This document shows, one piece after another, positions 1 through 39,336 of a stretch of DNA of 39,336 nucleotides. The DNA is from a phage: the sequence record PV991107.1; one strand, 5' to 3'. The translations under genes and the position numbers were made by a program. Position 1 is the first letter of the stretch, and the number at the start of each line of letters is the position of its first letter. Below the pieces are notes generated by a model. That model made no database searches. It saw nothing but the letters and a program-made list of their open reading frames with translations, and was not told the origin of the DNA.

Positions 1-634
1 AACGGCTCTCTTGTGTAACCTCCCAGCTGCATCCAACGAGAACATCGCTGGTCTGGGTACTGCGTCCGTACTGGAAGTTGGTACGAAAGCTGACCTCAAC
101 ACCCCGGCTAAACTGGGCGAAGCAATCATCGGTCAACTGACCATCGCTCGTGCGAAACTGACCTCCAACTACGTTCCTGCTGGCGACCGTTATTTCTATA
201 CAACGCCGGATAACTATTCTGCAATCCTCGCGGCTCTGATGCCGAACGCTGCTAACTATGCTGCGCTGATTGACCCAGAGACTGGTAACATCCGTAACGT
301 AATGGGCTTCGTGGTTGTTGAAGTCCCACACTTGACTCAGGGTGGTGCTGGTGAAACTCGTGGTGATGATGGTATCACTATTGCGACTGGTCAGAAGCAC
401 GCCTTCCCAGCTACTGCTACTGGTAATGTTAAAGTTGCTCTGGACAACGTTGTGGGCCTGTTCTCTCACCGTTCTGCTGTGGGTACTGTGAAGCTTCGTG
501 ACTTGGCGCTGGAACGTGACCGTGACGTTGATGCTCAGGGCGACCTGATTGTTGGTAAGTACGCTATGGGTCACGGTGGTCTGCGTCCTGAAGCTGCGGG
601 TGCGCTGGTTTTCACAGCAGCGTCAGCGGTCTAA
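1..634 (+). CDS. Major capsid protein (T7 gene 10A homolog), C-terminal ~211 codons; 5' part is at the window end (38971-39336)
   Basis: Open frame to TAA 632-634; translation (..NYSAILAALMPNAANYAALIDPE..KLRDLALER..KYAMGHGGLRPEAAGA..) matches the C-terminal half of T7 gp10A as I recall it; synteny (followed by Tphi-like terminator and gene 11). Confidence 0.9.
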   Translation, partial: TALLCNLPAASNENIAGLGTASVLEVGTKADLNTPAKLGEAIIGQLTIARAKLTSNYVPAGDRYFYTTPDNYSAILAALMPNAANYAALIDPETGNIRNVMGFVVVEVPHLTQGGAGETRGDDGITIATGQKHAFPATATGNVKVALDNVVGLFSHRSAVGTVKLRDLALERDRDVDAQGDLIVGKYAMGHGGLRPEAAGALVFTAASAV

Positions 635-897
635 CGACCTTTAAGGCCCTCTCTACAGAGGGTCCTACCTTAGAGACGTACAGTTCTACGGTGGGGACCA
701 GCCTGAAGGTTGACTTACCTGAGCTTTCAGATGTGACCGATTGGTCACTGCTTGAGGTGACTACGCCTGATGGTGTTAGCTACTCCCGTAGAACCAACAG
801 TCTCTACTTCAAGGCCACCTCTGGCGCGGAAGGTCTGGTGATTGTTGGGTATGACGGTTCGCCTGTGCGTTCCTTCAACGTATCTTTCACAAACTAA
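607..897 (+). other. Putative programmed -1 frameshift site (G GTT TTC, 607-613) and -1-frame extension producing a minor capsid protein (10B-like)
   Basis: The -1 frame relative to 10A is open from 559 to TAA 895-897; heptamer G GTT TTC lies 7 codons before the 10A stop, the same heptamer I recall at the T7 10A/10B shift site. Confidence 0.5.
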
Positions 898-903
898 TTG
901 AAA

Positions 904-939
904 CCCCTTGGGTGCCTTCGGGTGCTTGAGGGGTTTTTT
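904..939 (+). terminator. Tphi-like late transcription terminator
   Basis: CCCCTTGGGTGCC-TTCG-GGTGCTTGAGGGG followed by TTTTTT; 13-bp stem containing G-U pairs, UUCG loop, U-run; closely resembles T7 Tphi and sits at the same place (after gene 10). Confidence 0.7.
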
Positions 940-1056
940 GCTTAAAGTGAGGATGATTATGTTTTACTTACTTACAGCCTTGGGACTATTTGTTAGTTTC
1001 TGGGCGATTATATTATTAACCGGACCATGCAGTCCTTACGACAGATAGGAGGGAGT

Positions 1057-38970: not shown

Positions 38971-39336
38971 ATGGCAAACGTTCCGGGTCAGAAATTAGGT
39001 ACAGACCAAGGTAAAGGCAAATCTGGTTCCGACGCTCTGGCGTTGTTCCTGAAGGTCTTTGCTGGCGAAGTCCTGACCGCATTCACTCGCCGCTCTGTAA
39101 CTGCTGACAAGCATATTGTCCGTACAATTCAGAACGGTAAGTCTGCTCAGTTCCCGGTCATGGGTCGCACCTCTGGTGTGTATCTGGCTCCGGGTGAGCG
39201 ACTGTCCGATAAGCGTAAAGGTATCAAACATACCGAGAAAGTAATTACCATTGATGGTCTGCTGACTGCCGATGTGATGATTTTCGACATTGAAGACGCG
39301 ATGAACCACTATGACGTGGCTGGTGAGTATTCCAAC
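38971..39336 (+). CDS. Major capsid protein (gene 10A), N-terminal 122 codons, truncated by window end
   Basis: AGGAG - 9 nt - ATG; ..LALFLKVFAGEVLTAF.R.SVT...H.VR.I..GKSAQFPV.GRT...YLAPGE.L.DKRK.IKHTEKVITIDGLLTADV.I.DIEDAMNHYDV..EY.. nearly identical in pattern to T7 gp10A N-terminus. Confidence 0.95.
   Translation, partial: MANVPGQKLGTDQGKGKSGSDALALFLKVFAGEVLTAFTRRSVTADKHIVRTIQNGKSAQFPVMGRTSGVYLAPGERLSDKRKGIKHTEKVITIDGLLTADVMIFDIEDAMNHYDVAGEYSN

Follow-up and report, generated by a model that had tools for sequence, protein, structure and literature searches.

A conserved −1 frameshift signal at the end of a Kayfunavirus capsid gene and the predicted Ig-like extension of minor capsid protein 10B

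We analyzed 39,336 nucleotides of phage DNA (sequence record PV991107.1; this whole stretch is called the window below) and found at the end of its major capsid gene a slippery heptamer followed by a long open −1 frame. It is very probable that a T7-type −1 frameshift at this site yields a C-terminally extended minor capsid protein, 10B, carrying an Ig-like module. Every computational test agreed with, and thus supported, the −1 frameshift interpretation of the capsid gene end. The event belongs to the known 10A/10B recoding of the T7 family; its mechanism is textbook, and the cassette it carries is a common, uncharacterised Ig-like one. New here are the fold assigned to the domain and the hairpin noted downstream, the product itself being already annotated in the phages Peacock and CR8.

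The window is a near-complete genome of a Kayfunavirus, a genus comprising the K1F-like members of the T7 subfamily Studiervirinae, and both of its ends fall within gene 10. By megablast, positions 1-1100 were 99.5% identical to Enterobacteria phage IME177 and Escherichia phage pO2, and the remaining matches formed a long run of Kayfunavirus genomes. Where the end of the window should join its start, about 57 nt of IME177 (19 codons, QLGEALAIAADGAVLAE...) are absent. This gap looks like an assembly break, a natural genome end being disfavoured. The features of the region are as follows:

38971..39336, + strand: 5' part of gene 10, beginning at ATG 38971, placed by comparison with IME177
1..634, + strand: 3' part of gene 10A (major capsid protein), ORF 11..634, stop TAA 632-634
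592..634, + strand: overlap zone of 10A and the open −1 frame, bounded upstream by TGA 589-591
607..613, + strand: slippery heptamer G_GTT_TTC, in 10A phase, X_XXY_YYZ type
613..669, + strand: linker of the −1 product (HSSVSGLTTFKALSTEGPT), predicted to be disordered
670..897, + strand: predicted Ig-like beta-sandwich of 10B, extension residues 22-96, including the stop TAA 895-897
635..712, + strand: predicted RNA structure (consensus fold), an outer helix 635-647/701-712 enclosing a hairpin at 645-665 (GGCCCUCU/AGAGGGUCC)
691..897, + strand: 68-aa ORF with a GTG start, a 'hypothetical protein' in most relatives
901..940, + strand: Tphi-like transcription terminator hairpin with T-run, CCCC at 904-907, 3 nt past the 10B stop
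953-1048, + strand: small hydrophobic ORF of 29-31 aa (MFYLLTALGLFVSFWAIILLTGPCSPYDR), between the Tphi-like terminator and gene 11
ATG 1058: start of gene 11, downstream of the 10B region, with gene 12 beyond

The PDB sequences closest to the window's 10A were the T7-family capsid proteins 9vvq, 7y23 and 2xvr. The extension domain is absent from these solved capsid chains, all of which end where 10A ends. The top match (E 2.6e-121) was chain I of 9vvq, a solved chain of 347 aa named 'Minor capsid protein'; this match stops at the 10A C-terminus, and the chain is without the extension domain.

The heptamer is read in 10A as the codons GTT 608-610 and TTC 611-613, in X_XXY_YYZ phase, and the 10A stop TAA 632-634 is the seventh codon after TTC. 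The −1 frame is shut by TGA 589-591 and open from 592 through TAA 895-897; because of the upstream TGA, the extension can be reached only by a −1 shift within 592-634, where GGTTTTC was the only in-phase T- or A-run heptamer. Counted from GGT 607 the frame comprises 96 codons, and 94 new residues follow the slip (CAC 613-615 to AAC 892-894). The earlier note on this DNA had thus correctly placed the heptamer seven codons before the stop and had given a close count of 'about 95' open codons to TAA 895-897; the start of its span, 559, carries no particular meaning, as gene 10A runs upstream to the window start. The predicted 10B has 437 aa against 349 aa for 10A, a net gain of 88 aa, with (YAMGHGGLR)PEAAGALVFHSSVSGLTTFK as its predicted junction peptide and ALSTEGPTLETYSSTVGTSLK and VDLPELSDVTDWSLLEVTTPDGVSYSR as predicted extension peptides. 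A −1 frame of 94 open codons has a chance of about 1% ((61/64)^94). GGTTTTC occurs twice in the window against 4.15 copies expected; it is not enriched, and the heptamer is therefore no evidence on its own. At the sequence level, the evidence for a frameshift signal is in conservation among relatives, not in the heptamer alone.

We gathered 60 distinct related loci from GenBank phages and IMG/VR and scored them for frame and heptamer. They came from Kayfunavirus, Przondovirus (KP32-like), Caroctavirus CR8, a Dickeya phage Ninurta-like locus and viral contigs. The extension ORF lay in the −1 frame relative to 10A at every locus (60/60), and its overlap with the end of 10A always measured 31-85 nt. 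N_GTT_TTC stood in phase inside this overlap at all 60 loci, as GGTTTTC in 57, CGTTTTC in two and AGTTTTC in one. The linker differed in sequence and length by lineage (93-105 codons from the slip site), and across the 60 loci the frame was never broken.

The domain itself showed the pattern of a translated sequence. Variable sites at −1 codon positions 1, 2 and 3 numbered 14, 11 and 42 in Kayfunavirus and 18, 13 and 35 in Przondovirus, and no frame-breaking indels were seen in the alignments of either group. This third-position bias supports purifying selection on the extension in the −1 frame. A tblastn search with the 95-aa extension matched 455 phage records, with 75-100% identity in Kayfunavirus and 40-55% in Przondovirus (KP32-like Klebsiella phages), Caroctavirus CR8, and Dickeya and Pectobacterium phages. 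In Klebsiella phages a single alignment covered the slip site to the stop at 43-48% identity, and the domain was kept at 43-55% identity across several phage genera.

Truncated forms of the domain were also seen. In L018/L035 (IMGVR_UViG_2974604219, ~1498-1780) a deletion cuts the Ig-like domain after ...EVTTPE and joins the −1 frame to the downstream small hydrophobic ORF, and in L079 the domain is without its last strand. These truncations suggest that the module may be dispensable.

Comparison with K1F by blastn outlined the extension as a discrete segment. Positions 1-622 (89%), 892-951 (98%, the terminator) and 1056-1700 (96%) matched K1F, whereas 623-891 had no K1F match. Since K1F homology flanks this unmatched segment, the extension is a swapped cassette, bounded by the slip site on one side and by Tphi on the other. 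Such a cassette without K1F similarity between conserved flanks, together with the truncated variants L018/L035 and L079, would also be expected if the −1 ORF were an untranslated remnant of cassette exchange, or if frameshifting here were functionless and at background level; 10B is moreover dispensable in T7. We nevertheless regard this explanation as very improbable, given the third-position bias and synonymous excess in the −1 frame, the persistence of the domain at 43-55% identity over several genera and 455 records, and its confidently predicted fold. Translation of the extension as part of 10B is the reading that we retain.

Translation could in principle start within the extension. The 68-aa ORF from GTG 691 to TAA 897 might be an independent gene with its own start, giving a free protein, and a separate 68-aa CDS is indeed called in IME177, vB_EcoP-R1, phi1_146013 and many others, as well as by the gene callers of public assemblies. 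In LS2/L034-type Kayfunavirus relatives (L034 1201-1240, proteins P0001-P0004), the 10A stop shares a base with an ATG of the −1 frame (TAATG), and a free 87-aa domain protein could there arise by termination-reinitiation. The window, however, has ACG where the LS2-type phages have ATG. No start codon of the extension is conserved among the relatives, and this includes the column of GTG 691, the only candidate start; the starts called in relatives give products from 54 to 87 aa, and a Shine-Dalgarno sequence is absent from the 18 nt ahead of 691 (GAGACGTACAGTTCTACG). Predicted strand 1 (residues 24-28) and a conserved P-x-x-E/Q-T motif lie upstream of GTG 691, so that the called protein would begin inside the modelled domain. 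However divergent their linkers, all 60 of the 60 loci also keep the frame open as far upstream as the slip site, which argues against an independent gene. We therefore consider a separate gene quite improbable, and the best reading of the 68-aa ORF at 691..897 is as a 3' segment of 10B.

The site closely resembles that of T7, in which the −1 frameshift in gene 10 that makes 10B has been demonstrated and is ribosomal (PMC5009743). T7 has the identical heptamer, G_GUU_UUC, at the same position a few codons ahead of the 10A stop, as the earlier note had stated, and both phages have a CCCC-containing terminator of the Tphi type after the 10B stop. The two major capsid proteins are homologous, with about 70% identity over the C-terminal 200 aa. 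In Kvp1, a slip of the same TTTTC type, at TTTTCA, was proven by mass spectrometry (PMC2579914).

Under T7-type frameshifting, most ribosomes would pass G_GUU_UUC (607-613) and terminate at TAA 632-634, producing the 349-aa 10A. A minority would slip one base back, with tRNA-Phe moving from UUC to UUU and tRNA-Val from GUU to GGU with partial re-pairing. Conservation of the G_GU flank in 57/60 loci fits such tandem tRNA re-pairing. The slipped ribosomes would resume at CAC 613-615 in the −1 frame and terminate at TAA 895-897. The resulting 10B (437 aa) would consist of 10A residues 1-343 followed by ...ALVF-HSSVSGLTTFK..., and it should co-assemble with 10A because the whole capsid fold is retained.

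A change of frame could alternatively arise during transcription, if the phage RNA polymerase slipped on the T run, an origin to which we assign a minimal probability. Four T residues are far below the run length for efficient polymerase slippage, and a conserved flanking G_GU in 57/60 loci speaks against it as well. The site does contain TTTT, and other systems are known to slip on homopolymer runs, but at the identical site of T7 the shift has been established to be ribosomal (PMC5009743). A ribosomal −1 shift remains the preferred mechanism for the window.

We then considered RNA structure as a possible stimulator of this shift. The 107 nt 3' of the heptamer folded with z = -2.03, and the predicted structure at 635..712 is a candidate frameshift stimulator. 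No canonical stimulator was present 5-9 nt downstream of the heptamer; the predicted hairpin begins 31 nt after it. The region 3' of the slip site was stabler than nearly all 70-nt 10A coding windows in the three main lineages, but not in K1F and L021. An Rfam scan of 500-1100 returned nothing relevant. In the window's own group, one sequence carried two compensatory pairs, and variation was too low for a covariation test.

Przondovirus has a different, 18-bp hairpin, which starts 20 nt after the heptamer. Its alignment comprised 31 sequences (L006, L007 and 29 other loci; 20-62 nt after the heptamer, alignment A3 columns 27-69), and 98.7% of the pairs were kept across them. Two adjacent pairs showed compensatory changes, in 11 and 9 sequences (A-U/C-G, G-C/U-A and G-C/C-G), while shuffle and slide controls gave lower values. 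In KP32-like phages this hairpin may be an RNA element that is conserved downstream of the slip site of gene 10. Overall, the predicted folds point to a structure 3' of the slip site that is conserved by position and lies farther out than usual stimulators. A distant element is known in T7, where frameshifting is influenced by the CCCC of Tphi, over 200 nt downstream of the slip site (PMC5009743). The window's terminator region is 98% identical to that of K1F and about 84% identical to that of T7.

We utilized AlphaFold2 with a 20-sequence alignment to predict the structure of the extension, a check that the earlier note had proposed. Residues 2-20 were predicted to be disordered (pLDDT below 50), and after this linker came a seven-strand beta domain with a pLDDT of about 87. 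The predicted extension thus consists of a disordered linker of ~20 aa and a seven-strand Ig-like beta-sandwich of ~75 aa. A Foldseek search against the PDB gave the C-terminal Ig-like domain of the lambda tail tube protein as its top match. In BFVD, the search returned the 'minor capsid protein' of Pectobacterium phage PP81, which belongs to the same family (E 2.9e-8), followed by Ig-like and BIG2 proteins. On these models the domain is Ig-like, and the fold searches agree.

In sequence searches, the extension matched PHROG 7473, whose function is listed as unknown, over profile positions 2-82 of 82 (E 5e-37). Pfam and PDB sequence searches of the extension gave chance-level matches only (carboxypeptidase A, Rab1), Big_2 (PF02368) had no match in the window or in 8 relatives even at E up to 10, and there was no direct Pfam match to BACON (PF13004 / PF19190). 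A profile search of 1.84 billion representative proteins returned small ORF calls, one BACON-repeat protein and two weak repeat-protein matches only. The BACON-repeat protein, P0038, was matched by profile A1 with E 1.3e-11 summed over 5 repeats; for this possible remote link to BACON repeats, hhalign gave a probability of 77% when A1 was compared with a BACON repeat and 38% when the more diverse A2 was used. The two weak matches were set aside as generic beta-strand similarity: P0039, in whose repeats a ...YDGT... motif recurs, matched the last strands only, and the match of P0040 (Big_1/invasin repeats) was likewise limited to the last strands.

Since the fold searches agree on an Ig-like domain, the earlier idea that the extension is a surface module is reasonable. 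Capsid proteins of the T7 family have their C-terminus on the outside of the shell, as exploited in the T7 display system. 10B would add the flexible linker of ~20 residues and the 75-residue beta-sandwich at this end, and the head surface would then probably bear this accessory Ig-like module in a small number of copies. A role in decoration or binding, as the earlier note had suggested, agrees with the predicted fold, with binding suggested by the fold class only; the most probable role, on this modelled basis, would be weak adhesion to glycans of host surfaces or mucus. Likeness of the extension to the lambda gpV C-terminal domain, T4 Hoc and the N4 decoration protein is in fold only (10-20% identity), and the carriers of those domains are unlike a gene 10 capsid protein. 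In K1F, C-terminal fusions to 10B display GFP and adhesins on virions (PMC6277420, PMC13370021).

Despite the shared heptamer, the T7 and window tails differ. The T7 −1 tail has about 57 aa (net +53: 345 aa for 10A and 398 aa for 10B), matching the length that the earlier note had given, and is low-complexity, helical and not Ig-like, whereas the window tail has 94 aa and is unrelated in sequence. K1F, the type Kayfunavirus, has a short non-Ig tail of the T7 type, also unrelated in sequence to the window's extension. A near parallel in length is T3, with a 10B of 433 aa and a 10A of 347 aa (+86 aa, compared with +88 aa in the window). T3, however, slips on C_CCA_AAG, at lysine, rather than on G_GTT_TTC, and its extension belongs to Big_2 in Pfam (E 4.5e-10), the window's domain matching no Pfam family. 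Homology of the window's domain to the T3 Big_2 extension was rejected (hhalign probability 1.6%, no Big_2 match). Reviews cite gp10B of T3 and phiYeO3-12 as carrying an Ig-like domain added through −1 frameshifting (PMC5009743). Judged by sequence, the window's domain is a third type of cassette swapped in between one conserved slip site and the Tphi terminator, alongside the T7/K1F tail and the T3 Big_2 domain.

The earlier note had called the extension unusually long. This is true only relative to T7; with T3 10B gaining 86 aa and the domain occurring in 455 of the roughly 1370 phage records that have a T7-like capsid, the extension is not unusual.

Two relatives already carry annotations of the joined product and are no different in kind from the window. 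Escherichia phage Peacock has an annotated 437-aa minor capsid protein (QEG09703.1), the extension of which is 93.7% identical to the window's. The extension of Citrobacter phage CR8 (CDM21625.1) is about 49% identical, and both relatives share the window's heptamer, domain family and architecture. The CR8 10B record states 'matches in mass spectrometry; -1 internal frameshift' and does not mention extension or junction peptides. In most relatives, including the two nearest genomes, IME177 and pO2, the 3' part of 10B is listed as a separate 'hypothetical protein'. Such mis-annotation would leave a probably exposed virion domain unrecognised, both by proteomic databases and by screens that look for Ig-like or mucus-binding modules. 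In a study of SH4 virions, for example, the database was limited to predicted ORFs, which made the proteomics blind to 10B (PMC4925675). In the literature we found no description of an Ig-like 10B in Kayfunavirus or KP32-like phages, and the SH4 and Kp11 proteomics papers are silent on it. As the domain would sit on the capsids of many Kayfunavirus and Przondovirus therapy phages, it may matter for immunogenicity, mucus adherence and use as a display site.

A broader proposal is tentative and, in our estimation, unlikely: the domains would form a distinct uncharacterised Ig-like family, displayed by frameshifting on roughly a third of sequenced T7-family phages, with an invariant patch that binds glycan and a distant hairpin as stimulator. 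If so, the family would span many therapeutic Klebsiella and E. coli phages and, being absent from Pfam, would have been missed by Pfam-based screens. Its polar and aromatic patch (TDWS, RRxN, Y, K) would bind capsule, LPS or mucin, and such glycan binding would affect adsorption or gut retention. The predicted hairpin, at a conserved 20-31 nt 3' of the slip site, could then be an unusually distant stimulator.

Beyond the terminator, the small hydrophobic ORF at 953-1048 has a GAGG 6 nt upstream of ATG 959 and is annotated as hypothetical in phage phi1_146013. K1F is without it, 952-1055 being unmatched by blastn. The ORF may encode a single-pass membrane peptide.
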